Part shown: in pieces, positions 22,124-37,550 of the stretch
Numbering within the stretch: position 1 is the stretch's first letter
How the letters are laid out: each line of letters starts with the position of its first letter
Source of the DNA: Candidatus Zixiibacteriota bacterium
GTDB taxonomy: Bacteria > Zixibacteria > MSB-5A5 > GN15 > FEB-12
DNA: 39,145 nt
NCBI GenBank assembly: GCA_049324195.1
Contig: JBMOKZ010000410.1
Span: 1-39,145 of the forward strand
Direction of reading: 5' to 3'
The notes under the pieces: model-generated
Seen by the model: only the letters and a program-made list of their open reading frames with translations
What the model was told of the DNA's origin: nothing
Databases searched by the model: none
Made by a program: the position numbers and the translations under genes

Positions 22124-22138
22124 CAAATCCACCCCGGA

Positions 22139-22813
22139 TTATTCCATCCATCTCATGGTATTTATCATTCCGATCATTTCGTTGAAAATCGAATCGAAAT
22201 ATTGATATTCACAAATCATATAGAACAATACGATGGTGTTGCCGTTTTTGGTGGCCACAATGGCGCCGCCGTAGGAACCGTAAACGCGCTTACCGCCGGC
22301 GGCCGAAGCGCTGGTGGCGACTTCCTTCATGTATTTGGCCTGGCCGAGCCATTGCACCCCCTTCAGCTCGTTCTCGACCGTCCCCAGCGACACCGGTTTC
22401 CGTCCCTTGGGAATCAATTCCTGTTCGGAAAGAATTTCGAATTGTTTTAAAATCTCTTTTTTCTGGTCGGTTTTGTAAGTTTCGCTCACCAGAGAATCGA
22501 TGAAAGTCAAAGTGGGCATGCTCGAAGTATCGGCGAAAACGACTATGCGCGGCACCTGAGTATAATCCGGAGCATCGGCATAGTCCATCGGAATATCGTA
22601 TTTCTTTCGAACACAAACAACCCGGTCGTTATCTTTTTCCTTGTTGATATTCGAGGACCATTCATCATTTATTTGGAACTGGAAATTATAGGCAGCATCC
22701 GTATAGACCCCGTCTTGATCAACTTCGCCGGCCATTTTAATCTTCCGCCGGGCATCCGCAACGTCAGGAATAATAAGGATTAAAGCTGTCAAAATAATTA
22801 TTAGTTTCTTCAT
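22139..22813 (-). CDS. Exported hypothetical protein, possibly PsbP/DcrB-like fold
   Basis: AGGAGG RBS before MKKLII (22813); signal peptide (ADA); YTDAAYNFQFQINDEW near the N-terminus and a terminal helix-strand FDSIFNEMIGMINTMRW. Confidence 0.75.
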   Translation of the reverse strand: MKKLIIILTALILIIPDVADARRKIKMAGEVDQDGVYTDAAYNFQFQINDEWSSNINKEKDNDRVVCVRKKYDIPMDYADAPDYTQVPRIVVFADTSSMPTLTFIDSLVSETYKTDQKKEILKQFEILSEQELIPKGRKPVSLGTVENELKGVQWLGQAKYMKEVATSASAAGGKRVYGSYGGAIVATKNGNTIVLFYMICEYQYFDSIFNEMIGMINTMRWME

Positions 22814-23018
22814 AATTCCTCCTAACAACCAGCATTACTTCTCTTTTATAGTTTTAACATTATACCCGTAATAATCAAGGATTAATTCATTTTTTTTCGT
22901 TAAATGATGGTCTTAAAACAACACCCTAACCAACCGAACAGACTTAATTACATAAACTTAGGTATAGAATAAACGAGAAAATTAAAGTAAAGCAACTAAA
23001 ATCAACCGGCTGGAGGAA

Positions 23019-23888
23019 TTACCGCTCGAAACCTATTTTCCTTTTGGTTTTCACGGCGATATAATCTGCGGCGTTGATGAAATCGAAATCGCTTAACAGA
23101 CGTTCCAGTTTGTACTTGAAAAGAGAAGTGGAACCGTAGGTCCGAAATTTCTGCACTGGTGTCAGGTTTTGGATTCGGGGCAAGTCCGGGTCGATTTCCC
23201 AGGGATGCAGATAAATCATTACCGGCTGCCCGGTCTTATTCAGTTTTCGAATCATCATCTTCATGTACCAGTAGGGAGAATGGCGCAGATAACCGCCGCC
23301 GGAGACAGGGATATTTTTGCCGAAAATACGGAGAGTCGAGGACGGAATCTCATACAGAAAATTACCGTTATCGAAAGACATCTTGAACATCTGGCGCGGC
23401 CCGGAAGGCATCCCGTACAGGTCATGCTTGATGGGGAAAATGGAACTGTCATAAGTAAAACCCATTTCCGCCAGAATCTCGAAAGCCCACGGGGTATCGG
23501 CGCTGAGAGACCAGCTCGGCGCCCGGTAGCCCATCGGCCGGATATCCACCGCCTTCACGATCGCCGCGACCGCCCGTTCGGTATCCTCGCGAAACTCTTC
23601 CGGTCCCATTTTGTCGACACGCACGTGCTGATAACTGTGACAGCCGATTTCATGGCCATAATCGCTGATTTCCCGGATTAGTTCGGGATAACGCTCGGCT
23701 ATCCAGCCAAGCACGAACCAGGTCGCGCGAACGTCTTTTTTGTGAAAAAGCTCCAGCAGACGATGACAGTTTTTTACCACGGTTGAGGGTAGCTGCGGCC
23801 ATTCGCCGACATCGTAACGCCCCGTCAAAATTTCGACCACGAACCATTCTTCGAGATCGACCGTCAAAATATTAAGGTTATTGCTCAT
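23019..23888 (-). CDS. Polysaccharide deacetylase (CE4; XrtA/PEP-CTERM-associated type with DUF3473)
   Basis: LTVDLEEWF, ATWFVLGWIAE, HEIGCHSYQH, GYRAPSWS, YDSSIFP, GGGYLR, YLHPWEIDP. Confidence 0.93.
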   Translation of the reverse strand: MSNNLNILTVDLEEWFVVEILTGRYDVGEWPQLPSTVVKNCHRLLELFHKKDVRATWFVLGWIAERYPELIREISDYGHEIGCHSYQHVRVDKMGPEEFREDTERAVAAIVKAVDIRPMGYRAPSWSLSADTPWAFEILAEMGFTYDSSIFPIKHDLYGMPSGPRQMFKMSFDNGNFLYEIPSSTLRIFGKNIPVSGGGYLRHSPYWYMKMMIRKLNKTGQPVMIYLHPWEIDPDLPRIQNLTPVQKFRTYGSTSLFKYKLERLLSDFDFINAADYIAVKTKRKIGFER

Positions 23889-23913
23889 GAGAGGTTTAAT
23901 AAAAAACGCGACT

Positions 23914-24720
23914 TTATTCCGGTTTCGGTGAAATCTTATCCTGAGTCGGATCGTTTCTTTTCTTTTTATCCGGCGTCGAATTCCCGTGAGGCGATTTCAT
24001 CCGGTCATCCTTACCTGACAGGCCGGGAGGTTTTTGCTCGTAATGATAACCGTAATACGAATAATCGTAATAATAAGGCAGACTTCCACTCATATTGTTC
24101 AGAACAACACCCAGCAGTTTGAAATGATTGGTCTTGAGAATATCGACCGCCCGCTTCACCACCTCGCGCTGGGTTTCTCCAGCCTTGATGACCAGGACCA
24201 CCCCGTCGACTTCGTTGGCCACGAACAGGGGGTCGGAGACGGGAATGATAGGGGCGGAATCGATGATTATCTGGTCGTAATAGAATTTCATTTCCTCGAT
24301 CAGGCGGCCGATCGCCGGGCCGTTGAAAACCTCGGCCGGATGCGCACTTATTTTCCCGGCGGTGATGACGTCGAGATTGTCCAGGCTGGTTTTCTTGATA
24401 ACACTCTTGGCCGCGGCTTCATCCGCTAGAATCTCGTGCAGACCCAGCTGACGCTCCAGTTTGAACAGCTGATGAATAACCGGACGCCGCAGGTCGCTGT
24501 CGATAATTACGGTCTTGAGCCCTTTCTTGGCCGCCGTAATCGCCAGCAGCGAGGTAATGGTGGACTTCCCCTCGGAAAGCATCGACGACGTAACCATGAC
24601 AGCCTTCATCTCGCCATCCTTTTCACTTTCCTGAAGGTTGTAAAGAAGCCTTCGGAACTCGGCGGCGAAAGCCGTTTCCAGACTGAAATAATCGATGATG
24701 GATATCTCGTTGTGCGTCAC
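23914..24720 (-). CDS. CpsD/CapB family bacterial tyrosine kinase (soluble, no transmembrane part)
   Basis: Walker A SSMLSEGKST, A' IIDSDLRRP, Walker B IIIDSAP, GVVLN, and a Tyr cluster YYYDYSYYGYHY. Confidence 0.95.
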   Translation of the reverse strand: MTHNEISIIDYFSLETAFAAEFRRLLYNLQESEKDGEMKAVMVTSSMLSEGKSTITSLLAITAAKKGLKTVIIDSDLRRPVIHQLFKLERQLGLHEILADEAAAKSVIKKTSLDNLDVITAGKISAHPAEVFNGPAIGRLIEEMKFYYDQIIIDSAPIIPVSDPLFVANEVDGVVLVIKAGETQREVVKRAVDILKTNHFKLLGVVLNNMSGSLPYYYDYSYYGYHYEQKPPGLSGKDDRMKSPHGNSTPDKKKRNDPTQDKISPKPE

Positions 24721-24725
24721 GGGGA

Positions 24726-25847
24726 CTACCCTTTCTCGGATATTTTTTTCAGAACCAGGTTCATATCTTCATAAATGCTCGAGGCATCTTCCAGAGCAAG
24801 TTTTATTTTGGAAAGGGAGGGATTGGACTCGTGGGTACTGCGGTATTCATCGACCCCTCTTTGCCAGTTCAAACGACCCTGTTCCAGATAACAGCGAGCC
24901 AGGTCGGAATGCAAATCCACATAGGTCGGATTTTTCTTCAGCTCTTCTTTCAGGTAGGCGATCCGTTCCGCCAACGCTTTTTCCGAAATCCATTCCGAAG
25001 TCAGGGCGAATTTCATATAAAATCCTGAAAACTGTTCGCGGCTGTTTTCTTTCTTGGTTTCCCTGATTTTCCTGAAGATATTGAGGGCTCGTTTCAGTTC
25101 CCGGTTATTGAGCGCTTTCAAACCCTCGTCGAACGCCTGCCCTTTGAAAGCGGTATATATCAGGGTCGCTTTATACAAATAGTCGGAAATTTTCGCCAGG
25201 TAGCCGGGCCATTGCTGCCGGTCCTGATTTTTGAGAGCCTGATAAATGTAAGCCAGTCCCAAATTGAAATAAGCGTCGCTGTAATACAGGTTGATATTCA
25301 CCGCCTGCTGAAACTGCTCCACGGCGTCATCGACCAGATCGTCGGCCAGCAGGGCCTCACCCAGATTGTTGCGGTAATCGGCAAAGCCGGGCTTCTGGTT
25401 CACGGCCTGCCGGGCGGCGGCGATAGCCGCTTCGATATTGCCCAGCGCCAGTTCCGTCAGACCGAGCTGATTAAGCGACTGATGGTGTGCCGGGTCGAGA
25501 GCCACGGTGTTTTCAAACAGCGTCCGCGCCTCCTGATAAAAGCCCTTAAAATAAAAAGCTGTTCCGAGATAATATGACATCCGGACATCGCCGGCGTTGA
25601 CAATCTTGCGATAAGCTTGCAGAAGATTTTCCAGTTCTTTTTTCTTATCCTCGTGGGTCATTTTGACCAGCGAGAGAATTTCATTGGGACTGATATCGGT
25701 CGGGTGGAGGTTATTGGACGTTTCGGTCGGCACGCCGTTGATAAACACCGTCGTGGCGACCGTTCCCAGATTGGAATCGTTTACGGTTTGAATCAGATAT
25801 TCCGTATCCTTTTCACAAAGCCTGCTGCTTAAACGATAAGTTTCCAT
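24726..25847 (-). CDS. Cytoplasmic TPR protein with an uncharacterised N-terminal domain of about 75 aa
   Basis: GAGGAGG RBS; no signal peptide or TM helix; TPRs YYLGTAFY, LNQLGLTEL, PGFADYRNNLGEAL, YSDAYFNLGLAY, PTYVDLHSDLARCY. Confidence 0.88.
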   Translation of the reverse strand: METYRLSSRLCEKDTEYLIQTVNDSNLGTVATTVFINGVPTETSNNLHPTDISPNEILSLVKMTHEDKKKELENLLQAYRKIVNAGDVRMSYYLGTAFYFKGFYQEARTLFENTVALDPAHHQSLNQLGLTELALGNIEAAIAAARQAVNQKPGFADYRNNLGEALLADDLVDDAVEQFQQAVNINLYYSDAYFNLGLAYIYQALKNQDRQQWPGYLAKISDYLYKATLIYTAFKGQAFDEGLKALNNRELKRALNIFRKIRETKKENSREQFSGFYMKFALTSEWISEKALAERIAYLKEELKKNPTYVDLHSDLARCYLEQGRLNWQRGVDEYRSTHESNPSLSKIKLALEDASSIYEDMNLVLKKISEKG

Positions 25848-25874
25848 TGTCCTCCTCTATCGCCCTTGAATTTA

Positions 25875-26876
25875 TCAGTCGCCGGCCACGGCGGTTTCGG
25901 TGGTTTCTTCCGGCTTGATAAGTTCATAGAGCACCACCGCCGAGGTTATCCCGCCGATTAACGTCACCCAGGTGGTGACCCCGCCGCTGAAGAAGCTCTG
26001 TCGTCTTTCCGGAATGACGAAGGTGTCCTCGTTCTTGAGAATATATCGGGCCGGGCGACCGGTCTCGGTATATTTCTCCAGATTGACCTGATACGATTGG
26101 GCGTAATTGCCGTCTTTGGTAAGGATTTTCACCTTTTTCAGGTTAGCCTCTGGGGTCGGACCTCCGGCCAGGGCGAGCACTTCCATGAAGTCGATATTTT
26201 CCTCGTATTCTACGGGGCCGGGTTGATTGACCGCTCCGACGACATAAATAACGTTTTTCTTTTCGATATTCCGGCTGATATCCCCCGCGGTCAGTCCGAA
26301 GAGCCGACGGGGAATCTCGATGGTATCCTGCCGGCGGATTTTGGGCAGGCTGCTGAGTCGTCCCGAAGCGATCGCCTCACTGACATTGACCACCTCGACC
26401 TGACCGGCCTGGTCCCCGCCCCGGATGACGGTCACCCGCGACAGGTCGGCAAACTCGGTCACGCCGCCGGATTCGTTTATAATCGACCACAGGTCCGGTA
26501 TTTCCTCGAACGTTCTTTTTCCCGAGGTTTGAATCTCGCCGATAATATAGACATAATTGTAATTGTAAGTCGTGACTCGCACCACTGCCTGAGAGATATT
26601 CTTGTTCAGTCGTGACATATTGCGGACGATATCGGTCTGAAGTTCCTCCGTGGTCTTGCCCTCGGCCTGAATCTGACCGATTATATCCAGCGTTATCATG
26701 CCGTCAAGACTGACCCGAACGGTCGTGTTAAGTTGGGGGTCCTGCCAGAAGTTGATTTCCAGGACATCTTCGGGTCCTATTTTATACCCCTGAGCCAGGG
26801 CGGAAACAACGATTATAAGGGATATCAGAAGACTTATCCGAATTGTCTTCCATGACAAAAGCTGATTATTTTTCAT
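25875..26876 (-). CDS. wza: Polysaccharide export protein (Wza/OPX family, Poly_export plus SLBB repeats)
   Basis: YKIGPEDVLEINFW, VSLDGMITLDIIGQI...GKT, VYIIGEI, IYVVGAVNQPG, LALAGG, and a C-terminal amphipathic helix. Confidence 0.92.
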   Translation of the reverse strand: MKNNQLLSWKTIRISLLISLIIVVSALAQGYKIGPEDVLEINFWQDPQLNTTVRVSLDGMITLDIIGQIQAEGKTTEELQTDIVRNMSRLNKNISQAVVRVTTYNYNYVYIIGEIQTSGKRTFEEIPDLWSIINESGGVTEFADLSRVTVIRGGDQAGQVEVVNVSEAIASGRLSSLPKIRRQDTIEIPRRLFGLTAGDISRNIEKKNVIYVVGAVNQPGPVEYEENIDFMEVLALAGGPTPEANLKKVKILTKDGNYAQSYQVNLEKYTETGRPARYILKNEDTFVIPERRQSFFSGGVTTWVTLIGGITSAVVLYELIKPEETTETAVAGD

Positions 26877-26999
26877 AACTATGTTTTTCCGTTAAATAAG
26901 TTTATACCTTAAAAATCGGATAATATTTGATTTTATTAAGAAAAATAATATAGAGGATACTCAAATGAGTGTAAAGAATAAAAACACGACTAAAAAAGA

Positions 27000-28646
27000 C
27001 TATTCAAGGACGGCTTCTTTTTCACCGAACAGCAAAAACTTGTTGCGGCCGGCTTCCTTGGCCTGTAAAAGGGCCATATCCGCCGAAAATATCAGCTTTT
27101 CGGCGTTATCGGCATGGTCCGGGAAGATGGCTCCGCCTTGCGAGATGGTGCAGTTTAAATCCCGGTCGAGTTCGTTGATACGGAATTTAGAGTTCGAGAT
27201 TTTCAACTGGAGACGGTTCATAAAACGCTTGCAGGTCGCCTGATCGGCCTCGGGCATGATTACACAGAACTCATCGCCGCCGTACCGGGCGATGATATCG
27301 ATAGCCCGGATGGAACTACGCAATATCTGACCCAGTCGCTGTAAGGTGGCGTCGCCTGCCAGATGACCGTAATTATCGTTGATGCTTTTGAGGTCATCCA
27401 TATCGAAAATAATCAAAGCCAGAGACCGCCGGTAACGTTTGGCACGGTCGATTTCCTCGTTGAGCCGCTTGCTGAAATACCGATGGTTAGCCAGACCCGT
27501 CAGGTTGTCGGTATAAGACATCTCCTCGATTTTTTCATAAGATTCAGCGTTCTCAATCAAATATCCGGCCTGGGGCTGCGCCAGGACCAGTCGTGCGACA
27601 GTCGCCTGCGGTTCTCCCCCGCCGCTCCACGCAAGCAGACCCGCCTGACGGGAATTGAGCGAGAACGGCATAACAAAACGAAGTCCGGCTTTTTTTAGAT
27701 TTTGATTCAGGATTTCTGCACCGCAGTCGTCAATGGCAAACTCATCGAGAGACCGGTACCCGTTCTGACCCAGTTTCGCCAAACAAGTTTTAAACGCTTC
27801 CGACGAGGGCGTTTCCAGACCGCCGGTCACCCCCTGCTTGATTATGTTAAGAATCTCCCGCTGACGACTCTCGTAAATGAAAGCTACCTGATTCAAATCA
27901 AGGTCCTTGGCCAGAGCGTCGATTATTTTGGGTACGATGGTTTCCGAGTTGCGGTGTTTGACCAGTTTTAAAATATTCATGCCCGTAAAGCCCGTAACTT
28001 CCCTGGTCACCCGCGGCGCCGGGCGGGTCTGCTGTATTTTCTGCTCAAGTTTGCTATAGCGGGATTCGTGCCATTTGATATGGTAGGCCGCCGAAAGGGA
28101 CTGCGCCAGAGCTGCCAAGAGGAGATTGAAAGAAGGGGTTCTGGTCTCGAAAGTGCTTCGGATAAAATAGACCCCGTAAAGGTTCTCTCGCCAGAAAATG
28201 GGAAAATAAACATCGAAACCCATGCTCTCCAGCCGCTCGTAAACCGTTCCAGGGATTTGTTCTTTAAGGCGTAGCAATTTCTGCGGCAAAAAAGTCGTCT
28301 TGAAAAGAACCGCCAGTTCATCGCTGAATTTAATACGGAAATCACTGCGATTGAAACGATTGATACCGTGATAATAATTCAGTTCGAGGAAATTCCTTTG
28401 TTTTCGTAAAAAGACAATTCGTTGGCATTCAAACACATTCTTCAACAGGTCGGAAACTTTCCCAGCCACCTGTAAAATTGTACCCTCAACGCTGTTGGTT
28501 TTCAGAAACTCGGAGAATTCCTCCAAATTCATGTTTTTAATTATTGATAGATATTTTTTCTCATGCCGGATTCTGAAGATCAATAAAAAGGCCAGGGCGA
28601 CAACCAGGACAACCAGGGTCGCCGTAATAAAATTTTGGTCAAGCAT
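27000..28646 (-). CDS. Membrane-anchored diguanylate cyclase with degenerate GAF-like region(s)
   Basis: One N-terminal TM helix; TDNLTGL, DMDDLKSINDNYGHLAGD, I-site RAID five residues before an intact GGDEF, ADMALLQAKEAGRN. Confidence 0.95.
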   Translation of the reverse strand: MLDQNFITATLVVLVVALAFLLIFRIRHEKKYLSIIKNMNLEEFSEFLKTNSVEGTILQVAGKVSDLLKNVFECQRIVFLRKQRNFLELNYYHGINRFNRSDFRIKFSDELAVLFKTTFLPQKLLRLKEQIPGTVYERLESMGFDVYFPIFWRENLYGVYFIRSTFETRTPSFNLLLAALAQSLSAAYHIKWHESRYSKLEQKIQQTRPAPRVTREVTGFTGMNILKLVKHRNSETIVPKIIDALAKDLDLNQVAFIYESRQREILNIIKQGVTGGLETPSSEAFKTCLAKLGQNGYRSLDEFAIDDCGAEILNQNLKKAGLRFVMPFSLNSRQAGLLAWSGGGEPQATVARLVLAQPQAGYLIENAESYEKIEEMSYTDNLTGLANHRYFSKRLNEEIDRAKRYRRSLALIIFDMDDLKSINDNYGHLAGDATLQRLGQILRSSIRAIDIIARYGGDEFCVIMPEADQATCKRFMNRLQLKISNSKFRINELDRDLNCTISQGGAIFPDHADNAEKLIFSADMALLQAKEAGRNKFLLFGEKEAVLE

Positions 28647-28679
28647 TGTGTTCCACCAATACTAACGGCTTATATATAT

Positions 28680-28707
28680 AAAATAATGCGAATCCTGATT
28701 GTGTCAA
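28680..28707 (-). promoter_or_regulatory. Putative sigma70 promoter upstream of the diguanylate cyclase
   Basis: Minus strand TTGACA-N16-TATTTT, 34 nt before the ATG. Confidence 0.45.
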
Positions 28708-28720
28708 CTAAAAGTATGAA

Positions 28721-29404
28721 TTAAAATTGCTTACGGGCGTATTTAAAGCGGGATTTCTTTTTTAAAAGACCTTTTTTCTTAAGAATCGAAAAAATCCCCC
28801 ACCAGCCGATGTTTCTTTCGGCCCCATGATTATTGATTTCCTGCTTGATTTCAAAGATAGACATAAAGGGGTCCTGCCGCACCAGTCGCATTACCTGCAT
28901 TTCGATATTGCCGGAATCACCGTCGGTGAATTCCCCCTGACCGTCATATAACTGGTGAGTACCTCTCGAGGAAGACCCGATTTCGTTAACGACGGTGACG
29001 CGGGTTATTTTTTGGTCTTTTTTTTTTAACACTCCCGCTTCGACAAGCTGAGTTTCGAATTTGTCCCGAGCCGCATCCACGGAGTTATACGCCTGCAGAA
29101 CCTTGTCGAATTCCAGAAGTTCGTAAATCTCGTAGACGTTGGGAATCATATTCGCCAGCTTGATATCACCCCCGTTTAAGCGCAGGTCCTTGATATGCGA
29201 GATGAAAATTCCCCATCCGGCGGAAGAAATGTAATCCACCCCGGCCAGGTCGATGACGATATTATAGCGCTGCCGCTTGACCAGCGAATCGATGACTTCC
29301 TCGAGTTCACCAGCGGTCAGGGTATCTATAACACCGTCGATTCTAACCTCGGAAACGGTATTATTGATTCCGCATTCGGAAAGAGAAATGCTAATATTTT
29401 CCAT
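28721..29404 (-). CDS. STAS anti-sigma-factor antagonist with a C-terminal HTH-like extension
   Basis: GVIDTLTAGELE, IVIDLAGVDYISSAGWG (phospho-acceptor Ser motif), GGDIKLA. The tail VRQDPFMSIFEIKQEI...IGWWGIFSILKKKGL resembles an HTH. Confidence 0.9.
   Translation of the reverse strand: MENISISLSECGINNTVSEVRIDGVIDTLTAGELEEVIDSLVKRQRYNIVIDLAGVDYISSAGWGIFISHIKDLRLNGGDIKLANMIPNVYEIYELLEFDKVLQAYNSVDAARDKFETQLVEAGVLKKKDQKITRVTVVNEIGSSSRGTHQLYDGQGEFTDGDSGNIEMQVMRLVRQDPFMSIFEIKQEINNHGAERNIGWWGIFSILKKKGLLKKKSRFKYARKQF
29018..29027 (-). repeat. A10 homopolymer (coding strand) at the STAS/tail junction
   Basis: GTG TTA AAA AAA AAA GAC on the coding strand; T10 on the plus strand. Confidence 0.9.
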
Positions 29405-29474
29405 AATTTAAGCCAATAACTGTTGTAATTATTCGGTAAAAAAGAGAAAAAAAGTGAATCTCGCAAGTAAATTA

Positions 29475-31529
29475 TTATTCGTCGGATTTTTTGACCGAGG
29501 AGTTCTCGATATTCTGGGTGTCGATGGTCTGGCTGATTTCCCGGGCCGTTTCGGTATCTTTTTCGGTCCCTGACAGAACCGACCGGGCCAGGATAAAAGT
29601 GATATCGTCGGTCTGTTTCATGAATCCGGCATAATTGTCGATTTCCTCAACAATCGCCCGGGACAAGTCGGATATCTTCTGGGGATACTGATGGCTCAAC
29701 TGGCCATGCATGAACTTGCCTAAAGGCTCCATCCCGTACTGGTTGCCCTCGCGGTCGGTGGCTTCAGTGATACCATCGGTGTACACAAAGAAAACGTCCC
29801 CTTCTTCGAGTTCCAGACTGACCTCCTCGAGACTTTCCTCGAAGGTCTGGACGAGCGTCACGGGAAACCCGAGCGGCATCCCGGTCGGGTTAATTTGGGA
29901 AATCTTGCCGGTCCGGTACCGGTACAACAGCATGGGGTTGTGCCCGGCCGAGACGAAATTCAATTTTCTATCCGAGGCATCGTATATCGCCAGCAGCACC
30001 GTAATAAACATTCCCGGCGGGATATTCTTTTCCATGTAATCGTTGACCAAAATCAGCGTTTCCTTAGCCGAGACGGCTTCTTCGGATTTGATGCGGATGA
30101 CCGTCCGAATCATGGACATCACCAGCGAGGCCGGGACCCCCTTTCCGGATACGTCGGCCACCACCAGACAGTACCGGTTCGAGCTGATTTCGAAAATATC
30201 ATAAAGGTCACCGCCGACCATCGAGGCAGCGCGGTAAAAAGTATCGACCTCAAGACCGGGGAGATGCGGCAGTTTGCGGGGCAGCAGGGTCTTTTGAATC
30301 TGCGAGGCGACCTCGATTTCCTTGGCCATTTTCTCCCGGGCGACGACATTTTTACGGTCGCGACTCAGCCGGGTCATCATATCGTTGAGAGCGCGGGAAA
30401 TCTCGAAAAACTCGTCGGCGCCCTCGAGCGGCAGTTCCGTTTCAAGGTCGCCCGAGGTAAACTGCCTGACCCGGTGAGTTATCCGGACAATTGGTTTAAC
30501 GAAATAATTGGAAAGGATATATATACCCAATACTCCTACCAGCAACAGAATGCCGGTCAGCGCCAAAAACCGCATCCGGGCGTCGTTCAGCTTCTTGTAG
30601 ATGGGCGCCGAGGAATAGATGATGAAAGCTCTGCCCAGCATCCGTTCGCCCACTTTAATCGGCACAACCAGATAATTTTTCTGGCTTCCGTCAACGATAA
30701 AACGCTGAGTAACGTTGAGCATCTGAACATCGATATAGTTCGGCGGGATATACGGCTTGCGCAGGTTAAGGATATCCTCACTGTGAGCCAGGATAATACC
30801 GCTGGAATCGGTCAGGACAATCAACTGCAGAATCGGGTTGGAACGCAAATAGCTCTGAATCAATTCATCGAATTCTACATCGCTGCGGCTGTTGATGATA
30901 TACCCGGCAACCTGTTCGGCCATGGAAGCGGTCAGCGCCTTGACGGTGTCGTCGAGGTGGGCATAGACCTCTTTTTTGGTGCGGTCGTTGATATAATAAA
31001 AAGTTCCGCCGATTATCAGACAGACGATAAACATGGTCCAGAACGAGAATTTGACCCTCAGGGTAAACATCCGCCGGAGAATCGACGGGGAGTCGCCGGG
31101 GGCGCCGTGAATGCGTTTGATCATCCGCAATTCGTTAAAGCCGGCGGCCGATATATATTCCACCGAATTCATAATCCGTTGAATCATGTAAAAGCCCAGC
31201 CCGCCCTTGCGGCCCGACTCGACCAGCCGTTCCAGGTCAATTTTTCCCGAGCCGTCCGGCTGGAACGAACGTCCCGAGTCAATCAACGAAAAAGCGATCA
31301 TCTTTTTATAGATAACGATTCGGAGCCGCAGGGTGCCCTTCTCGTAGAGATAGGCGTGGCGGATAATGTTGGTCGCCCCTTCCTCGATGGCCAGAAGCAC
31401 CGCCGAGACATCCTTACGCGACATCCCTGCCGTGGTGCAGCTTTCCTTTACGATCTGACGGATATTATCGAGGTATTTTTCTTCGGCCAGAAACTCGGCA
31501 TCGATTTCTTTTATCGGGCGATGAAACAT
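29475..31529 (-). CDS. Bifunctional membrane sensor: RsbW-type Ser/Thr kinase, TM, Cache-like periplasmic domain, TM, HAMP, SpoIIE/PP2C phosphatase
   Basis: Kinase motifs EEGATNIIRHAY, IDSGRSF, GGLGFYMI. TM helices FWTMFIVCLIIGGTFYYI and FLALTGILLLVGVLGIYIL. HAMP KPIVRIT...GDL...DEFFEISRALNDM. PP2C motifs VGGDLYD, ADVSGKG, SAGHNP, YTDGITE, DDIT. Confidence 0.93.
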   Translation of the reverse strand: MFHRPIKEIDAEFLAEEKYLDNIRQIVKESCTTAGMSRKDVSAVLLAIEEGATNIIRHAYLYEKGTLRLRIVIYKKMIAFSLIDSGRSFQPDGSGKIDLERLVESGRKGGLGFYMIQRIMNSVEYISAAGFNELRMIKRIHGAPGDSPSILRRMFTLRVKFSFWTMFIVCLIIGGTFYYINDRTKKEVYAHLDDTVKALTASMAEQVAGYIINSRSDVEFDELIQSYLRSNPILQLIVLTDSSGIILAHSEDILNLRKPYIPPNYIDVQMLNVTQRFIVDGSQKNYLVVPIKVGERMLGRAFIIYSSAPIYKKLNDARMRFLALTGILLLVGVLGIYILSNYFVKPIVRITHRVRQFTSGDLETELPLEGADEFFEISRALNDMMTRLSRDRKNVVAREKMAKEIEVASQIQKTLLPRKLPHLPGLEVDTFYRAASMVGGDLYDIFEISSNRYCLVVADVSGKGVPASLVMSMIRTVIRIKSEEAVSAKETLILVNDYMEKNIPPGMFITVLLAIYDASDRKLNFVSAGHNPMLLYRYRTGKISQINPTGMPLGFPVTLVQTFEESLEEVSLELEEGDVFFVYTDGITEATDREGNQYGMEPLGKFMHGQLSHQYPQKISDLSRAIVEEIDNYAGFMKQTDDITFILARSVLSGTEKDTETAREISQTIDTQNIENSSVKKSDE

Positions 31530-31572
31530 AAGTACAGTTTAGGCAAGAACGGTTTCAGAAACTATTAAAAAA

Positions 31573-33408
31573 TTATTTTTCGGTTTGACCACCGGGGTTC
31601 AAGCGCAGTTTGGCCTGCTCGATATTATGCAGCGTGTTGACATTACCCGGATAGACTTCGAGCACCTTCTCCCAGGCGTCAATCGCTTTCTGGTATTCCT
31701 TGTTACGCATATAGCGGATTCCCTCGAGATAGAGGTTCCAGATTTCCTTGTCTTGCTGGAGTTCCTCGAGGGTCGAGGCCTGGGTTTGCGCCTTTTCGAT
31801 CTTGTCGATATAATCCAGCGCCACCGGTTCGAGACTGTCGATTTCCAGCACCTGCTCAAACCGCTTGCGAGCGTCGTCATATTGCCCCTTTTTGAAAAGG
31901 GAGATACCCAGGTTAAGCTGCTGCGACAAATCCAGAGTGTTCAAAGCTCTTTCCCTGGCTGTCGAGGCGGCTTCGTTGTACGGGTCCAAATCGAGAATAC
32001 GGTTATAAGCTTCGATTGCCCCCATCATACGACCCTCCGTTTCCGCCGCCCGCGCCGCATCCCAGTTCAAGGCAATCTCTTTCGTCACGGTTTCGGTAAT
32101 CTCTTTTTCAAGGCTTACCGCCCGAACATCGTGCGGCTCGATTTCAAAAATAAGGTTCAGCATATCCAGGGCAGCGGCATAGTATTTCTTGCGGTAAAAA
32201 TCTTCGGCCTGATTGTAATACCGGTCGATAAACTGCTGATAGCCCTGGCTAGCCTGATTGATGCGCTCCTGCTGTTCCATCTCCACTTTCATGGCTTCTT
32301 CGATGGAAACGATCGTTTCCATTATTTCTTCGTTGCCCGGGTCGACCACCAGCGCCTGCTGGTAATAGACAAGGGCTGAATCGAGCTGGAATTGACGGAA
32401 GAAATAGTCGGCCTGGGTCTTGAGCCGCATGAATTCCCGCTGTTTTTCATCGATTTCGACCGGCGGCAGCGAGGTCGCTCCGATATCTTTTTGCGCCATG
32501 CGGTCGGCGGTCGAGGACCCGATAAAGAACGACAGCGAGAAGTTATGAATATCCTCGATAAAGTCCATGACCTTATAAGCATAGTCGAATTTCAGCCGGT
32601 GAAATCGCAAGCCGGCTCCAAAGGACAAATTGTCGCGGTCGTAACCTGTCCGCAGGTAATAGGCGTCGTAAAACGCCACCTGAATCCCGCCGTGCAATTT
32701 GAACGAACGCTGCTCGTACTTCTCGAAATCCAGCGAGGCGGTTACCGCCAGACGGTCGGATATTTTCAGGTCCTGATACGAGAGTCCGCCCATCAGCGAG
32801 CTCGGGACGGTTTCCTCGTAGGTGTTCAGCTTTATTTTGGCGGGGACAACATCCCGAGCCATCAAGCCCAGCGAAAGGTTTTTGTACAGCCGCATCCGTA
32901 CGGCGGCATCCAGTCCGAAACCGTAATCGGAATAATCATCGAGCGACTGGTTGACAATTTTGGCGTTGATGCCCAGCGCCAGGTTACGCCCCAGTTTCTG
33001 TCCGAAAGATATGAGAATCTGGGAATAAGTATAATCGAAAAGATACTGTTCTTCGAAATTAACGGTTTTCAGAATGTCATCGGTTCCGACCCGCATAAAG
33101 CCAAGCCCGATCCCATTTTTATCCGAGAAGGGATACACCCAGGAGGCATAATCGTAAATCGTTCCCTCAAAAAGAACGGTGTGCATAACCGACAGTTCCT
33201 GGAAATCGAGATAAGACAGACAGGCGGGATTGTAATAAACAGCCGAGGCGTCGGCGGCCAGCGAAGTATACCCGCCGCCCATTCCCAGTGCCACAGCGCC
33301 GGCGCCATGTGAAAAAACCGACTCCTGCCCGGCGTCATCAGCCGCCACCGAAACCGCGAGCAGCGCCCAAAAAACAAGCACCGGAATTATCAGTCGTCTT
33401 GTCGTCAT
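31573..33408 (-). CDS. PorV/PorQ (UPF0164)-like outer-membrane beta-barrel fused to a C-terminal TPR region
   Basis: Signal peptide; GAGAVALGMGGGYTSLAADASAVYYNPACL; last strands LRTGY...FGAGL...FDYAY...HNFSLSF; then about 300 aa of TPR/helical repeats (AYNRILDLDP, FEQVLEIDS, WEKVLEVYP). Confidence 0.85.
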   Translation of the reverse strand: MTTRRLIIPVLVFWALLAVSVAADDAGQESVFSHGAGAVALGMGGGYTSLAADASAVYYNPACLSYLDFQELSVMHTVLFEGTIYDYASWVYPFSDKNGIGLGFMRVGTDDILKTVNFEEQYLFDYTYSQILISFGQKLGRNLALGINAKIVNQSLDDYSDYGFGLDAAVRMRLYKNLSLGLMARDVVPAKIKLNTYEETVPSSLMGGLSYQDLKISDRLAVTASLDFEKYEQRSFKLHGGIQVAFYDAYYLRTGYDRDNLSFGAGLRFHRLKFDYAYKVMDFIEDIHNFSLSFFIGSSTADRMAQKDIGATSLPPVEIDEKQREFMRLKTQADYFFRQFQLDSALVYYQQALVVDPGNEEIMETIVSIEEAMKVEMEQQERINQASQGYQQFIDRYYNQAEDFYRKKYYAAALDMLNLIFEIEPHDVRAVSLEKEITETVTKEIALNWDAARAAETEGRMMGAIEAYNRILDLDPYNEAASTARERALNTLDLSQQLNLGISLFKKGQYDDARKRFEQVLEIDSLEPVALDYIDKIEKAQTQASTLEELQQDKEIWNLYLEGIRYMRNKEYQKAIDAWEKVLEVYPGNVNTLHNIEQAKLRLNPGGQTEK

Positions 33409-36374
33409 TTCATCACCGCCACTTTCAGCCGGGCTTCCTGGCCGGTCGCATGAATAGTAATCTGGGCGATATAAACCCCGTTATAAACCAAATCGCCATC
33501 GTTGTTGCGGCCGTCCCAGGTGATTTCGTTCAAATCATCAACCAAGCCCTCGCCCGCCGGGATATCGAGCGAGAAAACTTCCTCGCCGATCAACGTGAAA
33601 ATCCGGAACTCCACCCGGCTTTCCTGCTCGAGATAATAGCGGAAACTGGCCGGGGCATCGTACGGGTTGAAGGGATTGTTTTCGATTCTGAAAGACTGTT
33701 CCAGCGATTTGCCGGAAGTCACATAGAGCTCCGACAGCAGGGTCGAATCGCCGGTAGGCGAACTCACGGCGACATTGTCGCCGGCCATGATGGCGTCGAT
33801 AAACCGGGCGTTAACCACATACTTGTCAAGATTTACGGTGAAAGTTTCCGGTAAGGTTTCTACCAGCATGGCCTTGAAATAGATCGTCCGGGTCTGCGAA
33901 GCCGGTATTATAAAATCGGAGAAATAAAGGGTAATCTTGTTTTGTCCCGCGACAGCCGTAGTGACCTGTTCGTTGTCTTCGTAAAACCCGGAATTGCCCA
34001 CTTCCAGCACGGAACGCACCGCCAACGGCTGCCCCTGAGCATCGCTCAAAGTTACCGCGATATGTTCCAGAAGCATATCGGTCAAGGACGAGGTCCCGGT
34101 GTTGGTCAAGTCGAGATAAAACAGGTTCACCAGGTTACCCGCCGCAATCAGATGGTCGGATTTCTCGGGTCGTACGAACAATTCGGCGTCGAGAGAGGCA
34201 AGGGTAACCCCGATATCAAATGCCGTATCGCCGATTTCCGCCGGCAGGGACGTATTCAGCTCGGTCGGCTTCTGAATGATATCGAACGTGAAAAAGGTCA
34301 CGGTATCGATTTCCGGTCCGACCAACGTAAACCGAAGCGGCACGCCAACGACGATATTCCCCTCGAACGGATCCGGTATGCCCATCTCGACACCGCCGGT
34401 CGAAAAACGATACCGCCCGATAGTCGTCTCCGCTTGACCGTAATTGGTCAGATTGACCGTCAGGTAAACGGTATCCCCCGGTTCGATGATGCCGTCAGAC
34501 AAACCCTGGGAGTTATAGGACAAAAGAAGCAGCGCCGGTTCCTCGATAACGATCAGCTCGATATCGTCCAGCGGCTCGAGCTGGTTAAGATTATTGGAAA
34601 CGATTTCAACCTGTAAAACTTCGTTACTGTTGGTTTCCTCTGCTGCCGTTATATCATAAAGAATCTCGACCGTATCCAACGGCAGAATCTCGTCCACAAT
34701 CTGCTCGGAATTGAAAACGGAGGTACCGTTGCTCGTCAGGTTCAAAGTCATACCGGTTACCGGGTATTCGGACTGGTTGGCGATCCGGCAAAGCAGTTGA
34801 AACGCCTGACCGACATTGATCCGGGGGCGGTTCGGCATCAGGGCTCGGAGTTCCAGAATCTGCACGGTCGGACGCTCCAGCACCGTAACTTCCTGCCCGT
34901 TGAAATTGGTTTCATACTCGATATAATTGGCCGCCCCGGTTTGTCGGTAATGAATCGAGGTGGACATTTTCAGGCTGGCTCCGACCTGGTCGAGAGGAAT
35001 GAAGATCGGGTCGGTAACTACCGTGTTAACTCCCTCGTTTAGCATGTTGTCAGCGACCGACAGGTTAACGGTGGCGGAATAACCCTGTCCGCTGAGAGTG
35101 AAAACCGAAAGGTCAGGATCTATTTCCAAAGCCGGCACGCCGGTCAGAATCAAATCGAAACGGAAAGGTACATCGCTGCCCGCATTTATCTCCAGCGGTT
35201 CTAAAGAACCAGCCGCATAGGTGAGAGATGCCGGGGCGAGCAGTTGAATCGAGTCGGGATAGGCATTGTCCAGCGTAAAAATATTGCCGCCGGAAATAAG
35301 GTGATAATCCAGTTTTACCATGTACGGCCCCGGGGTCAGCCCGGCCAGGGTATCGATTTCGGCTGTCAGGCTGTCATAGCTGATAACACCGCCCGAAAAC
35401 GAGTGATACGACGGTGAACCGGTGTAAATGGTTGCCAATTCCGCGCCATTAATGCTGTCGCAAAGCTTGATGGTCAACGAAGTGCTGTCAATCTGACCGG
35501 GGAAATCCGTAGCGGCAACGTCAAAGGAGACTTCAAACGGTACGCCCTGATAAACCGTATCCGGCAAAAACGAGCCGGGGACGACATCGAATGAAGCCAG
35601 CGCGTAAACGGTTACGGGAATGTGATACTCAGTGAAAGCCTCAAGCAAAATCTCGTTTACCAAATATTCACTGGTCAACTCCAGTACCATGGTATCCTCG
35701 CCCGGGTTCAGATTGGGGGTTTCCAACTGAATAGGGAGAGTGTCGATAATACCGTTGGCCTGCGGCGCGTAAAAAATATATTTGATTGACCCGCCCCCGG
35801 ACCGGAAATAAGCTTTTATCGTAGGTTCACTGTTAGCCTCCCGGGTACCCCGGTTTTGGACCGTAACGTGAATGGTCGTCGGCAGGTCAGAATAAATCTG
35901 GCTTATGGGATTGCCTATGAAATCGAAGGCGTTCAGAATATCATAGCCGTTGAAGGAGACGATAACGACCGAAGAAGAAATCAGGCCGTCGGTGACATAA
36001 ATTTCGACGTTTCCGGTCGGCCCGAGATAGCGCACGCCGGCGGGACGGAGGTCGATGACCCCGCCGTTGAACAGAGCCGGGTCATCCAGCACTCCGGGAA
36101 CAATTTCGCCGATACTGGACACCAGCGAAAGTGGATGCGTGGAGAGGTCAAATTCGGTCAACTGGACACTGTTGCTGTCGAGCAAAATTATACGGGCCTC
36201 GGTGATAAATGTCTGCCCCACCACCTGGGTCGAGGAAATGGTCAAAACAATCTGAGCCAGGTCATCTTGCGCCTTCTGAACCGTCTCTCTTTCGGGTGCA
36301 ATGAAATCAACAGAGAATCCCGTAAAGGGAAGTAAAAAAAGAAAGGAAAATATAAAAAAACAGTATTTTCTCAC
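33405..36374 (-). CDS. Large acidic Ig-like secreted/surface protein with a FlgD/T9SS-like C-terminal domain
   Basis: GTG start and a signal peptide; beta-rich CARDB-like segments (VTVQNRG, IEPGDTVYLTVNLTNYG, LDLTNTG); C-terminal NNPFNP...RIFTLIGEEV...WDGRNNDGDLVYNGVY...KVAVMK. Overlaps the next gene by ATGA. Confidence 0.85.
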   Translation of the reverse strand: MRKYCFFIFSFLFLLPFTGFSVDFIAPERETVQKAQDDLAQIVLTISSTQVVGQTFITEARIILLDSNSVQLTEFDLSTHPLSLVSSIGEIVPGVLDDPALFNGGVIDLRPAGVRYLGPTGNVEIYVTDGLISSSVVIVSFNGYDILNAFDFIGNPISQIYSDLPTTIHVTVQNRGTREANSEPTIKAYFRSGGGSIKYIFYAPQANGIIDTLPIQLETPNLNPGEDTMVLELTSEYLVNEILLEAFTEYHIPVTVYALASFDVVPGSFLPDTVYQGVPFEVSFDVAATDFPGQIDSTSLTIKLCDSINGAELATIYTGSPSYHSFSGGVISYDSLTAEIDTLAGLTPGPYMVKLDYHLISGGNIFTLDNAYPDSIQLLAPASLTYAAGSLEPLEINAGSDVPFRFDLILTGVPALEIDPDLSVFTLSGQGYSATVNLSVADNMLNEGVNTVVTDPIFIPLDQVGASLKMSTSIHYRQTGAANYIEYETNFNGQEVTVLERPTVQILELRALMPNRPRINVGQAFQLLCRIANQSEYPVTGMTLNLTSNGTSVFNSEQIVDEILPLDTVEILYDITAAEETNSNEVLQVEIVSNNLNQLEPLDDIELIVIEEPALLLLSYNSQGLSDGIIEPGDTVYLTVNLTNYGQAETTIGRYRFSTGGVEMGIPDPFEGNIVVGVPLRFTLVGPEIDTVTFFTFDIIQKPTELNTSLPAEIGDTAFDIGVTLASLDAELFVRPEKSDHLIAAGNLVNLFYLDLTNTGTSSLTDMLLEHIAVTLSDAQGQPLAVRSVLEVGNSGFYEDNEQVTTAVAGQNKITLYFSDFIIPASQTRTIYFKAMLVETLPETFTVNLDKYVVNARFIDAIMAGDNVAVSSPTGDSTLLSELYVTSGKSLEQSFRIENNPFNPYDAPASFRYYLEQESRVEFRIFTLIGEEVFSLDIPAGEGLVDDLNEITWDGRNNDGDLVYNGVYIAQITIHATGQEARLKVAVMK

Positions 36375-36420
36375 ATCGATAAATTCATGTTTAACGAATT
36401 AATATTTTGCTAAATAATAA

Positions 36421-36436
36421 AGCAAAGAATATGCCT
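36421..36436 (-). promoter_or_regulatory. Putative sigma54 (-24/-12) promoter for the surface-protein/signalling/EPS gene run
   Basis: Minus strand AGGCATATTCTTTGCT = GG-N10-GC with GGCA and TTGCT, 47 nt upstream of the GTG start. Confidence 0.65.
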
Positions 36437-36668
36437 TCTATCTTAATGTCGCTCAAATAAATACGGAAAATATTTCCTGTCCGGGGTACCCTCCGTCACA
36501 CAGCTAACTAACTAATTTTAAACAGATTAGGAATGTAATAAGATTTTATCGTTTACAAGGTGCAGACTTGAAGAATATTTATAAGTACGAGCTAATAATA
36601 TTTATTAAAAAAGTGTGTAACCGGTTGCAACTATTCAGAAACAAAATATAACCAAAACCAATCTAATC

Positions 36669-37550
36669 TTACTTTGCCAGTTTTTCCGCGGCCGTAACGG
36701 TATTGACCATTAACATCGCGATAGTCATCGGTCCTACCCCGCCCGGCACCGGGGAAATATAAGAAGCTTTCTGCGAACAGGTGTCGAAATGGACATCGCC
36801 GACATTGCGATAACCTTTTTCGGTCGTTTTGTCTTCAACCCGGTTGACACCGACATCGATTATCACCGCACCTTCCTTGACCATATCCGCGGTGACGAAC
36901 TCGGGTTGGCCGATAGCGGCGATTAAGATATCCGCCCGGCGAGCGACCTCGGCCAGATTTCTCGTTCGGGAATGCGCCACCGTCACGGTGGCGTTCCCCA
37001 TCGGACATTTCTGCATTAACAACGCCGCCAGGGGCTTCCCAACAATATTAGAACGCCCGATTATTACCACCTCTTTGCTTGCCGGGTCAATCTGGTAATA
37101 TTCCAGAAGCTTGACAATACCGTTAGGGGTACAGGGAAGGATATTGGGCTGTCCGATCAGCATCAAGCCGACATTGACCGGATGAAAACCGTCCACATCC
37201 TTTTCCGGCCTGATGGCCAGCGTAATTTCCATTTCATCGAGCGGTTTCGGCAGTGGGGACTGAACCAGAATACCATGAATTTTGGGATTCTCATTCAGAT
37301 CTTTCACGATTTGCAGCAGTTCCCTCTGGGTCAAACTGGCCGGTTTCTTGATGACCTCGGAATAGAGATTCAGGTTTTCACACGCTTTGGCTTTACTGTT
37401 GACATAAGTAGCCGACGCCGGGTCATCACCGACCAGCACCGTAGCCAGACCCGGAGTAACGCCGTTTTTTTTCAGCGCTTCGATACGCGGTTTCAAACCC
37501 TCTCGTACATTTTTAGCAACTTCTTTTCCGGTAATCAGTTTTGCGGTCAT
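36669..37550 (-). CDS. folD: Bifunctional methylenetetrahydrofolate dehydrogenase/cyclohydrolase
   Basis: PGLATVLVGDDPASATYV, HGILVQSPLP, KDVDGFHP, PCTP, GRSNIVGKP, PVPGGVGPMTIAML. Start reassigned to MTAKLI (37550). Confidence 0.98.
   Translation of the reverse strand: MTAKLITGKEVAKNVREGLKPRIEALKKNGVTPGLATVLVGDDPASATYVNSKAKACENLNLYSEVIKKPASLTQRELLQIVKDLNENPKIHGILVQSPLPKPLDEMEITLAIRPEKDVDGFHPVNVGLMLIGQPNILPCTPNGIVKLLEYYQIDPASKEVVIIGRSNIVGKPLAALLMQKCPMGNATVTVAHSRTRNLAEVARRADILIAAIGQPEFVTADMVKEGAVIIDVGVNRVEDKTTEKGYRNVGDVHFDTCSQKASYISPVPGGVGPMTIAMLMVNTVTAAEKLAK

Follow-up and report, generated by a model that had tools for sequence, protein, structure and literature searches.

A candidate envelope-spanning signalling cluster around a partner switch in Zixibacteria

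The partner switch and the closest described systems

In Pseudomonas aeruginosa, the STAS antagonist HsbA is described as interacting with the diguanylate cyclase HsbD (PMC5085249), and in the Sia system the switch protein SiaC is described as activating the cyclase SiaD in the control of biofilms (PMC8457831, PMC7647112). Another switch protein, CapS, was described in 2026 as a STAS-winged helix-turn-helix (wHTH) repressor that is released on phosphorylation by CapK (PMC13373217). At the outer membrane, PorU:PorV and PorZ:PorQ sub-complexes of the T9SS (type IX secretion system) are known, and substrates are described as piling up bound to PorV (PMC5562754). Here we report on nine genes (A to I) on a contig of 39,145 nt (JBMOKZ010000410.1, our C410; hereafter the window, meaning this whole stretch) from a Zixibacteria metagenome-assembled genome (GCA_049324195.1; 3.36 Mb, 421 contigs), in which a partner switch lies between genes for a putative T9SS surface protein and a barrel on one side and genes for a diguanylate cyclase and polysaccharide export on the other. 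An earlier note on the window had interpreted these genes as a path from a surface protein across the envelope to cyclic di-GMP (c-di-GMP) and exopolysaccharide (EPS) export, and this interpretation is partly supported by the analysis described here.

The nine genes are all on the minus strand and span positions 23019-36374 in the list of open reading frames (ORFs; Table 1). Genes A and B overlap by 4 nt, and the gaps that follow measure 43, 70, 74, 123, 27, 5, and 25 nt, in agreement with the earlier description of nine co-oriented genes lying between an overlap and about 125 nt apart. The start of A was taken as a GTG codon; the end given earlier, 36436, lies 62 nt further out. The scan of 22 ORFs in the window turned up no sigma factor, as had been stated before.

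Judged from its residues, the core of the cluster is a partner switch of the RsbU/RsbV/RsbW kind, in which the STAS serine, the GHKL kinase boxes, and the PP2C aspartates are all in place. The kinase domain of protein C was matched by RsbW models at 48-58 bits, which is under their equivalog cut-offs, and its N-box (E49, E50, N54, R57, and H58) and G-boxes (D84, G86, R107, and G109-G112) were invariant in 35 sequences. The SpoIIE model scored 152.7 bits on C, and the invariant PP2C residues in the same 35 sequences include D441, D444, D459, G462, G464, D585, G586, D641, and D642. Two hydrophobic segments of C (about residues 159-180 and 321-339) bracket residues 181-320, which puts the Cache-like domain in the periplasm and leaves the kinase, HAMP, and PP2C domains on the cytoplasmic side. 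PF17203 is annotated on many orthologs of C, where the Cache signal is stronger than in the window copy. No Response_reg match was found on C, in which two membrane helices, the Cache-like domain, and HAMP occupy the place of a receiver domain, and the Pfam and NCBIfam scans detected no c-di-GMP-binding domain on it.

In protein D, the motif DLxGVDYISSAGWG, which includes Ser60 and Ser61, was invariant in 18 sequences, and Ser61 was aligned with the serine of the DSAG motif that is the acceptor in TM1442. A structure search matched the STAS fold of D to SpoIIAA, RsbV, and TM1442. Protein E was matched by the GGDEF model at 157 bits (residues 378-536), and residues G456, G457, E459, and F460, together with R447 and D450 of the RxxD site, were invariant in 20 sequences. 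E is predicted to consist of one transmembrane helix, two GAF-like domains, and the GGDEF domain; the term GAF-like is based on Pfam GAF matches in 2 of 20 E orthologs, on the secondary structure of the model, and on long alignments with phytochrome-cyclases. The top solved matches of the E model were bacteriophytochrome-cyclases, in a Foldseek search that was dominated by the GGDEF domain.

Among described systems, HsbR/HsbA/HsbD is the closest in wiring and SypE the closest in protein layout, and the cluster is a member of neither. As in the Hsb system as described, an RsbW-type kinase fused to a PP2C phosphatase is paired with a STAS antagonist, and a cyclase is encoded nearby (PMC5085249). 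Genes D and E are adjacent in most loci, and the GGDEF and RxxD motifs of E are intact. HsbA has no helix-turn-helix (HTH) tail, and the Hsb genes have no T9SS cargo, barrel, or EPS export genes alongside. The input of HsbR is a receiver domain fed by HptB; the input of C, in contrast, is a transmembrane Cache-like/HAMP sensor, and it has no receiver domain.

Like the cluster, SiaABCD combines a kinase and a membrane phosphatase of the HAMP-PP2C type with a switch protein and a cyclase, as far as that system is described in the sources; phosphorylation of the switch protein and the link to biofilms would also be shared. The Sia kinase is a separate protein. C scored 69.7 bits on the SiaA model NF038263 (against 700), and E scored 146.2 bits on the SiaD model NF038266 (against 290). 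SiaC is not known as a STAS protein. In Vibrio fischeri, SypE carries an N-terminal RsbW-like kinase and a C-terminal PP2C domain, and works with the STAS protein SypA in the control of polysaccharide. The centre of SypE is a receiver, whereas that of C is a membrane-spanning sensor, and we know of no outer-membrane partner of SypE.

The earlier statement that no T9SS-like cargo and PorV pair had been described together with a partner switch agreed with the literature search. No paper was found that joined partner switching and type IX secretion in one system (subscription journals and supplements lie outside the coverage of the search), and the same search found none linking Zixibacteria with the T9SS, or the T9SS with SpoIIE and STAS. 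Three features are undescribed in the searched literature: the input side, in which a PorV-family barrel bears a TPR arm and is accompanied by a protein with a T9SS C-terminal domain (CTD); the duplication of this input with another output; and a STAS-HTH protein whose gene has a candidate recoding site.

The tail of the STAS protein and the A-run in its gene

In the model of D, built from an 18-sequence alignment, the STAS domain is confident and the tail has pLDDT >90, with a disordered linker between them. Because the Foldseek search with the D model was dominated by the STAS domain, the fold of the tail was assigned from an Atlas search, in which 63-67 residues of the tail matched structures at TM 0.81-0.86 from clusters carrying HTH_28, HTH_23, or HTH_29. 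These HTH domains are the N-termini of IS481-type transposases. The same search also matched the tail to the C-terminal region of 963-aa Zixibacterial proteins of the C type, and hhalign aligned it with the HTH region of the long C proteins at a probability of 49% (E-value 1.7e-4). It is reasonable on these predicted structures to call the tail HTH-like, which is not a family assignment.

Since D is by prediction a STAS-HTH protein, it could act directly on DNA. CapS, with its STAS domain and C-terminal HTH, is the described parallel, in which phosphorylation of the CapS serine by an anti-sigma-type kinase controls DNA binding (PMC13373217). This precedent makes a direct DNA output of D a real possibility, and by analogy D may act in this way. 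D differs from CapS as described in its long variable linker and in an HTH whose predicted structure is HTH_28/29-like, and also in coming with a dedicated phosphatase and with a membrane sensor, and beyond the STAS fold the likeness is one of description.

The junction between the STAS domain and the tail of D is encoded by a run of ten A residues. Only 9 A/T runs in the 3.36-Mb genome reach a length of 10, this one among them, and there are no longer runs. The contig of a second assembly, made from a run that is possibly the source sample and so not independent, showed no differences over positions 28500-29600, the A-run included. In relatives, D is often split into two ORFs in different frames, and the junction is 9-11 A residues that encode KKK in both frames. 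After identical copies were dropped, 64 distinct D loci were compared. All 47 of the loci from families f1 and f4 (the order of the window) had a run of A9-A11. Relative to the STAS domain, 34 of them had the tail in the -1 frame and 4 had it in the +1 frame, while in the other 9, which include the window and its genus, the tail was in frame. The 16 loci of other families and orders had no run of 8 or more and had the tail in frame; 1 of the 64 loci was cut.

The A-run was the sole invariant block of nucleotides within a diverged linker. In 15 split loci no start codon was present near the junction, the conserved peptide I/V-T-K/R-L/V-T-V-V began directly past the run in the shifted frame, and the tail residues DPF, GWW, and SRFR were kept out of frame. 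A profile of the tail matched both of the split loci tried, L019 (E-value 4e-22) and G013. For the window copy of D, a gain or loss of one or two A residues was computed to give STAS-only products of 131-138 aa. Two other explanations were rejected. Split D loci are not two genes with starts of their own, given that no start lies near the junction and that the conserved peptide begins at the run. An assembly error in the homopolymer was also rejected, as the -1 state recurs across many assemblies, at 34 distinct loci, and wherever the tail was checked it is conserved.

From these sequences, the A-run is likely a site of programmed slippage that sets the ratio of STAS-only to STAS-HTH isoforms. 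Both of its configurations have described counterparts: in dnaX of Thermus thermophilus the shorter product arises by slippage on an in-frame A-run, and in mxiE of Shigella flexneri the run is out of frame and the longer product needs slippage (PMC1088944). The window is like dnaX as described there, with an in-frame run and a shorter slipped product expected, and most relatives are like mxiE, out of frame and in need of slippage for the full-length protein (PMC1088944). What differs is that the gene here is that of a STAS antagonist, and that one family holds both configurations.

The alternative for the A-run by itself is replication slippage, that is, phase variation, or tolerated decay, in which case the -1 lineages make a STAS-only protein. 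Runs of 9-11 are described as hypermutable (PMC1088944), and all three frame states occur among species. However, the frame states are strongly skewed towards -1 rather than even, the out-of-frame tail retains its conserved residues and its profile match, and the conserved peptide, which lacks a start codon, sets in right at the run. We consider this alternative unlikely.

Conservation, the surface pair, and a paralogous module

Matches to C at E-values <1e-100 were found in 39 of the 41 genomes of the window's order, most of them full-span and a few cut by contig ends. At E-values <=1e-70, C was matched in 233 of 285 genomes of the phylum and in 170 of the 198 high-quality ones, and five families of the phylum had no match at this threshold. 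The neighbourhood of C was compared in 34 loci from 34 genomes of the phylum's families, 20 within the window's order and 14 outside it (ten other families). A adjoined C in 29 of 34 loci, and B stood beside C as a full barrel with TPR arm in 30, as the TPR part only in 3, and not at all in 1. D was adjacent in 26 of 34 loci. The remaining genes could be evaluated in 33 loci, among which E was adjacent 28 times, F and H 26 times each, and I 23 times. The earlier note had named conservation of the cargo, barrel, and EPS genes beside the signalling genes in relatives as its own test, and these counts bear it out. The flanking genes folD and ymdB were present in all 20 loci within the order and in none of the 14 outside it, where A and the full barrel-TPR protein B still stood beside C in 11.

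In three loci without A and the barrel (L025, L036, and L037), a 266-307-aa homolog of the TPR arm with a signal peptide was encoded directly upstream of C, which indicates that the constant neighbour of the sensor is a periplasmic TPR module. Locus L039 had neither form of B. Where D was not adjacent it was kept elsewhere in the genome, in 5 of 5 genomes of family f3 and also in G013, G266, G268, and G276.

Protein A begins with a hydrophobic stretch at residues 4-22 that is consistent with a signal peptide. FlgD_ig scored 20.1 bits on the window copy (cut-off 27), and all matches of Pfam and NCBIfam models to its C-terminus were weak. The PorU and M6i models matched this C-terminus with their CTD ends, at E-values of 4e-5 and 2e-6, respectively; TIGR04183 gave no match to the window copy at an E-value <=0.001. 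Among the C-termini of 30 orthologs of A, the CTD end of PorU matched 25, that of PorZ 20, and TIGR04183 16 (E-value <=0.01), so that the best matches were the CTD ends of the PorU and PorZ models. Atlas neighbours of A bear FlgD_ig, CARDB, and Por_Secre_tail, and are leads only. A-like proteins also appear in Atlas rows under Krumholzibacteriota, again as a lead only.

The barrel of B matched NF033709 over residues 35-294 with 95.5 bits and 96.8 bits in two scans (cut-off 90). B fell short of the equivalog models, with 104 of 325 bits for PorV2 and 53.5 of 220 bits for PorQ, and the PorP/SprF models were likewise not reached. The TPR arm of B would be periplasmic. The genome encodes a PorU of 669 bits with an adjoining PorV gene (contig C379), SprA fragments of 224 and 209 bits, and seven PorV-family barrels above the cut-off, of which B is one. 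By these genes a T9SS is present in the host genome, in an inventory that consisted of PorU, the PorV family, and SprA. A second CTD protein is encoded in the window at 7104-9956 on the minus strand (950 aa, TIGR04183 46 bits); it is unrelated to the cluster and has weak sub-threshold matches to beta-propeller repeats.

The A/B pair resembles PorU:PorV and PorZ:PorQ of Porphyromonas gingivalis, in which a CTD surface protein is described as held non-covalently on a PorV/PorQ-family barrel (PMC5562754). By analogy, A would be exported by the T9SS and would dock by its CTD on B, as PorU on PorV or PorZ on PorQ. To our knowledge, described PorV and PorQ proteins have no periplasmic TPR arm, and we know of neither feeding a signalling protein. 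In TonB-dependent transducers such as FecA-FecR-FecI, a barrel with a periplasmic extension signals to an inner-membrane regulator and from there to a cytoplasmic switch. The path proposed for the cluster is similar in running from the periplasmic extension of a barrel through an inner-membrane regulator to a cytoplasmic switch, but its barrel is of another family, its arm is a TPR arm and not an N-terminal signalling domain, it has no TonB box, and its switch is a STAS protein and not an ECF sigma factor.

A second module of this kind was found on contig C138 of the same genome (L091:2092-17594). Its genes encode, in order, a CTD protein (>2174 aa), a PorV-like barrel with TPR arm (674 aa), a sensor PP2C phosphatase (532 aa, membrane, without a kinase domain), a STAS-kinase protein (260 aa), a STAS protein (118 aa), a histidine kinase (563 aa), and an 805-aa TPR protein. 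The two barrel proteins were 25% identical over 621 aa, the sensor phosphatase was 26% identical to the sensor and phosphatase of C over 502 aa, and the last 109 aa of the CTD protein were 30% identical to the C-terminus of A. The order of the first six genes recurred in all 8 of the other genomes compared, which come from three families (L094-L101), and the 805-aa TPR gene was matched only in L101. By these comparisons, two old paralogous lines with different outputs have both retained the trio of cargo, barrel with TPR arm, and PP2C sensor. Of the comparative arguments that place the A/B pair in the signalling path, this one is the strongest.

The earlier note had suggested a signal passing through the TPRs of the barrel protein to the sensor. 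Cofolding of B residues 300-611 with C residues 181-320 gave a score of 0.53 (runs of 0.57, 0.53, and 0.49), while the best of 3 controls scored 0.00; the runs shared at least 58% of contacts, and the pLDDT of the partner was at least 82. In the calibration, which applies only roughly because the fold used alignments made for this analysis, 58 of 80 solved complexes and 2 of 110 mismatched pairs reached the mark. Marks at 0.60 or under came from only 7 of the 80 solved complexes, plus both passing mismatches. The models thus lend weak support to a contact between the TPR arm and the sensor domain of C.

Several variants of C and D were observed in other lineages. In other orders C is about 945-1054 aa long, and the copy in locus L042, the only long form scanned, has an HTH_23/HTH_28 match after the phosphatase. 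A ParA/MinD-like (AAA_31) gene lies between C and D in L042 (C region at L042:7902-11586), and other loci with a long C (L033, L034, L038, L039, and L043-L046) have a gap of matching size there. The ancestral form of C is the one with the extra HTH region and the ParA-like gene next to it; the window's order has neither. In family f3 (G040, L102:6201-14525), D lies about 460 kb from C, after a sigma-54-dependent response regulator and ahead of a CTD-bearing subtilase and a second CTD-bearing protein with a weak sub-threshold match to the PorZ propeller. An EF-G paralog is found upstream of the moved D in f3 and also upstream of A in L042. The homolog search with C had only close Zixibacterial relatives among the 120 matches listed, which has no bearing on other phyla; a 731-aa kinase/HAMP/SpoIIE cluster in an Atlas row under Eiseniibacteriota is a lead only. 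A 557-aa open frame on the plus strand (29895-31568), antisense to C, was taken as a shadow of C.

Outputs, the proposed path, and its alternatives

Protein F was matched by Poly_export (69.7 bits) and SLBB (65.2 bits), both above their cut-offs, and scored 128.8 bits on the XrtA/PEP-CTERM exporter model (cut-off 180). Protein G has no signal peptide and always accompanies H. Protein H scored 173.8 bits on TIGR01007 (cut-off 108), has a P-loop kinase domain, and ends in a tyrosine cluster with the motif YYYDYSYYGYHY in the translation; protein I scored 315.2 bits on TIGR03006 (cut-off 276.2). An exosortase is encoded on another contig of the genome (C199, L092:660-10701), with 246 bits on PF09721 and 203.6 bits on the XrtA model against a cut-off of 208, beside an EpsI gene and sugar-nucleotide genes. 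Because these genes lie elsewhere in the genome, F-I appear to have become detached from an exosortase-type polysaccharide system, and the contig C199 genes are probably the rest of it. Contig C199 also has a weak match (61 bits against 400) to a response-regulator model of c-di-GMP phosphodiesterases.

The flank upstream of the cluster consists of the housekeeping genes folD, ymdB, and rny, and the downstream flank of J, a LapB-like TPR protein, SPOR, mutS, mutL, and miaA. Gene J had no family match in the Pfam and NCBIfam scans and was found after I in 12 of 20 loci of the window's order. A terminator-like hairpin just past J was the sole strong site of this kind on the minus strand within 22000-37000. 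As no strong terminator lies between A and J, co-expression from A to J is plausible, and a single long transcript is possible on this evidence.

Table 1. Positions of the genes, domains, and sites of the cluster in the window
Feature	Position	Strand	Size	Description
A	33405-36374	-	989 aa	putative secreted surface protein, signal peptide, Ig-like/CARDB-like repeats
A, C-terminal domain, about residues 903-989	33408-33668	-		T9SS type-A CTD kind (candidate)
B	31573-33408	-	611 aa	PorV/PorQ-family barrel and TPR arm
B, N-terminal barrel after signal peptide, residues 33-294	32527-33312	-		PorV/PorQ family
B, C-terminal TPR arm	31576-32511	-	about 310 aa	TPR families, about residues 400-600
C	29475-31529	-	684 aa	kinase / Cache-like sensor / HAMP / PP2C phosphatase
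C, residues 14-138	31116-31490	-		RsbW/SpoIIAB-type serine kinase, cytoplasmic; HATPase_c_2 73.7 bits
C, residues 181-320	30570-30989	-		periplasmic Cache-like sensor between two membrane helices
C, residues 339-649	29583-30515	-		HAMP (339-389) and PP2C (SpoIIE, 450-649) phosphatase, cytoplasmic
D	28721-29404	-	227 aa	STAS and HTH-like tail
D, residues 1-112	29069-29404	-		STAS anti-sigma-antagonist; STAS 63.8 bits, residues 15-112
D, residues 163-227	28724-28918	-		four-helix HTH-like tail, predicted structure
A10 run (T10 on plus strand), STAS/tail junction	29018-29027	-		candidate slippage site
E	27000-28646	-	548 aa	membrane-anchored diguanylate cyclase, GGDEF
F	25875-26876	-	333 aa	Wza-type outer-membrane polysaccharide export protein
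G	24726-25847	-	373 aa	TPR protein
H	23914-24720	-	268 aa	bacterial tyrosine autokinase
I	23019-23888	-	289 aa	XrtA-system polysaccharide deacetylase
J	22139-22828	-	229 aa	secreted protein, no family match; possibly last gene of unit
Terminator-like hairpin	22100-22124	-		11 pairs then T-run, just past J; consensus match only

We hold it moderately probable, overall, that the genes form a phylum-wide Zixibacterial signalling cluster around a partner switch that works as follows. The domains and catalytic residues of the switch were seen, and the kinase and phosphatase of C would set the phosphorylation of D at Ser61. With A docked on the barrel, the periplasmic TPR arm of B would touch the periplasmic domain of C; this outer-membrane input step is drawn from the conserved adjacency, the TPR-only variants, the paralogous module, and one weak fold result. 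The alternating target of the switch has two candidates, the cyclase E and DNA. By analogy with HsbA-HsbD and SiaC-SiaD, D would act on E, and by analogy with CapS it would act on DNA through its HTH-like tail. Both outputs would tune c-di-GMP and the expression or activity of the adjacent Wza, TPR, tyrosine kinase, and deacetylase genes, and F-I would serve the exosortase-type polysaccharide system whose remaining parts lie elsewhere in the genome. The A9-A11 run would give STAS-only and STAS-HTH isoforms by transcriptional or ribosomal slippage, full-length D being the in-frame product in this genome and requiring a -1 shift in most relatives.

The complete version, in which an antenna exported by the T9SS and docked on the barrel is relayed by the TPR arm to a kinase/phosphatase that sets the STAS-HTH switch, in which this arrangement is duplicated (once with c-di-GMP/EPS and once with a histidine kinase), and in which the isoform ratio is tuned by frameshifting, is put forward tentatively.

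Several observations weigh against the proposed path. The window copy of A is under the cut-off of every CTD model, and sCache_3_2 on C (residues 195-318) reached 24.2 bits against a cut-off of 28.4. The earlier domain list accordingly stood, by Pfam and NCBIfam, for B, for the kinase, HAMP, and PP2C domains of C, and for D and E-I, while its Cache-like domain and CTD cargo were sub-threshold in the window and stronger in orthologs. For the HTH-like tail named in that list, the four-helix fold resembling HTH_28/29 was recovered, but none of the Pfam HTH models matches D, and the assignment comes from predicted structures and the single hhalign result only. No conserved pairs were found beside the A-run by RNAalifold in 47 junction regions, and no Rfam family, the c-di-GMP riboswitch included, matched anywhere in the window at an E-value <=0.1. 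Split-type tyrosine kinases normally need a Wzz-type activator, and the window has no gene between F and G (25847-25875), so that a Wzz/CapA-type partner of H is absent there; a Wzz and GNVR gene occupies this place in L042 (L042:15173-16720), several further loci leave about 1.5 kb between F and G, and the nearest Wzz/GNVR homolog in this genome is 27% identical (contig C78:100-1608). Five of the 34 loci have no A beside C and four have no barrel there, which indicates that the switch can work without them, and in eight of the 34 D is not linked to C and E. The cofold of the TPR arm with the sensor is weak by its own calibration. Finally, A and B would lie next to C just as readily if they were co-regulated products and not inputs.

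This last point leads to the alternative that survives best, a co-regulated operon for a biofilm matrix, in which A is an adhesin and B its anchor, both are products of the operon, and the Cache-like domain of C senses a small molecule or the state of the envelope by itself. Co-expression is plausible in the stretch from A to J that has no strong terminator, Cache domains commonly bind small ligands, and cargo genes beside their own barrel genes are known from T9SS type-B cargo with PorP/SprF-like proteins. The switch also remains in L025, L036, L037, and L039, where A and the barrel are missing. However, the loss of barrel and A in the first three of these loci, which represent separate lineages, left the periplasmic TPR-only homolog of B directly upstream of C. 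The order A-B-C is kept, moreover, in the paralogous module, which has a histidine kinase as its output and no EPS genes, and the cofold score of the arm and sensor stands, weakly, against those of the controls. On this evidence we consider it rather unlikely that A and B are products only.

A path running inside-out in the manner of the Lap system, in which the cytoplasmic state (c-di-GMP or phosphorylation of D) changes the periplasmic domain of C, which then acts through the TPR arm of B to keep or release A, is improbable. The parts do share the topology of LapD-LapG-LapA, HAMP domains can transmit both ways, and A, B, and C are tightly linked, but the cytoplasmic parts of C are enzymes that would act on a STAS protein, the usual design of an outside-in sensor. 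In addition, no c-di-GMP-binding domain is present on C, and the cluster encodes no periplasmic protease. Inherited synteny, in which A/B, the switch, and the EPS genes would not be functionally linked, is very improbable: the stretch from rny to mutS, housekeeping genes included, is wholly syntenic in the 20 loci of the window's order, but outside the order the flanks are gone while A-B-C-D-E stay together in most loci, F-I are adjacent even where the block is inverted (L038 and L045, of one family), and the paralogous module has the same order.

Partner switches over c-di-GMP and polysaccharide are known, and their inputs are mostly unclear; the cluster offers a concrete candidate input for a whole phylum, and the same input of barrel with TPR arm and CTD protein is seen twice, in paralogous modules. 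The STAS-HTH architecture ties it to the newly described CapK/CapS logic. The A-run in the STAS gene would be a rare recoding site within a signalling gene, and the dnaX-like and mxiE-like configurations within one family form a natural test set for the evolution of isoform ratios. If the proposed path is true, T9SS components have a role beyond secretion, in a trans-envelope signalling path, and the cluster would represent a new class of cell-surface signalling built of secretion-system parts. It would further open a way to study how an uncultured phylum, widespread in sediments and biofilms, senses surfaces and controls biofilms.

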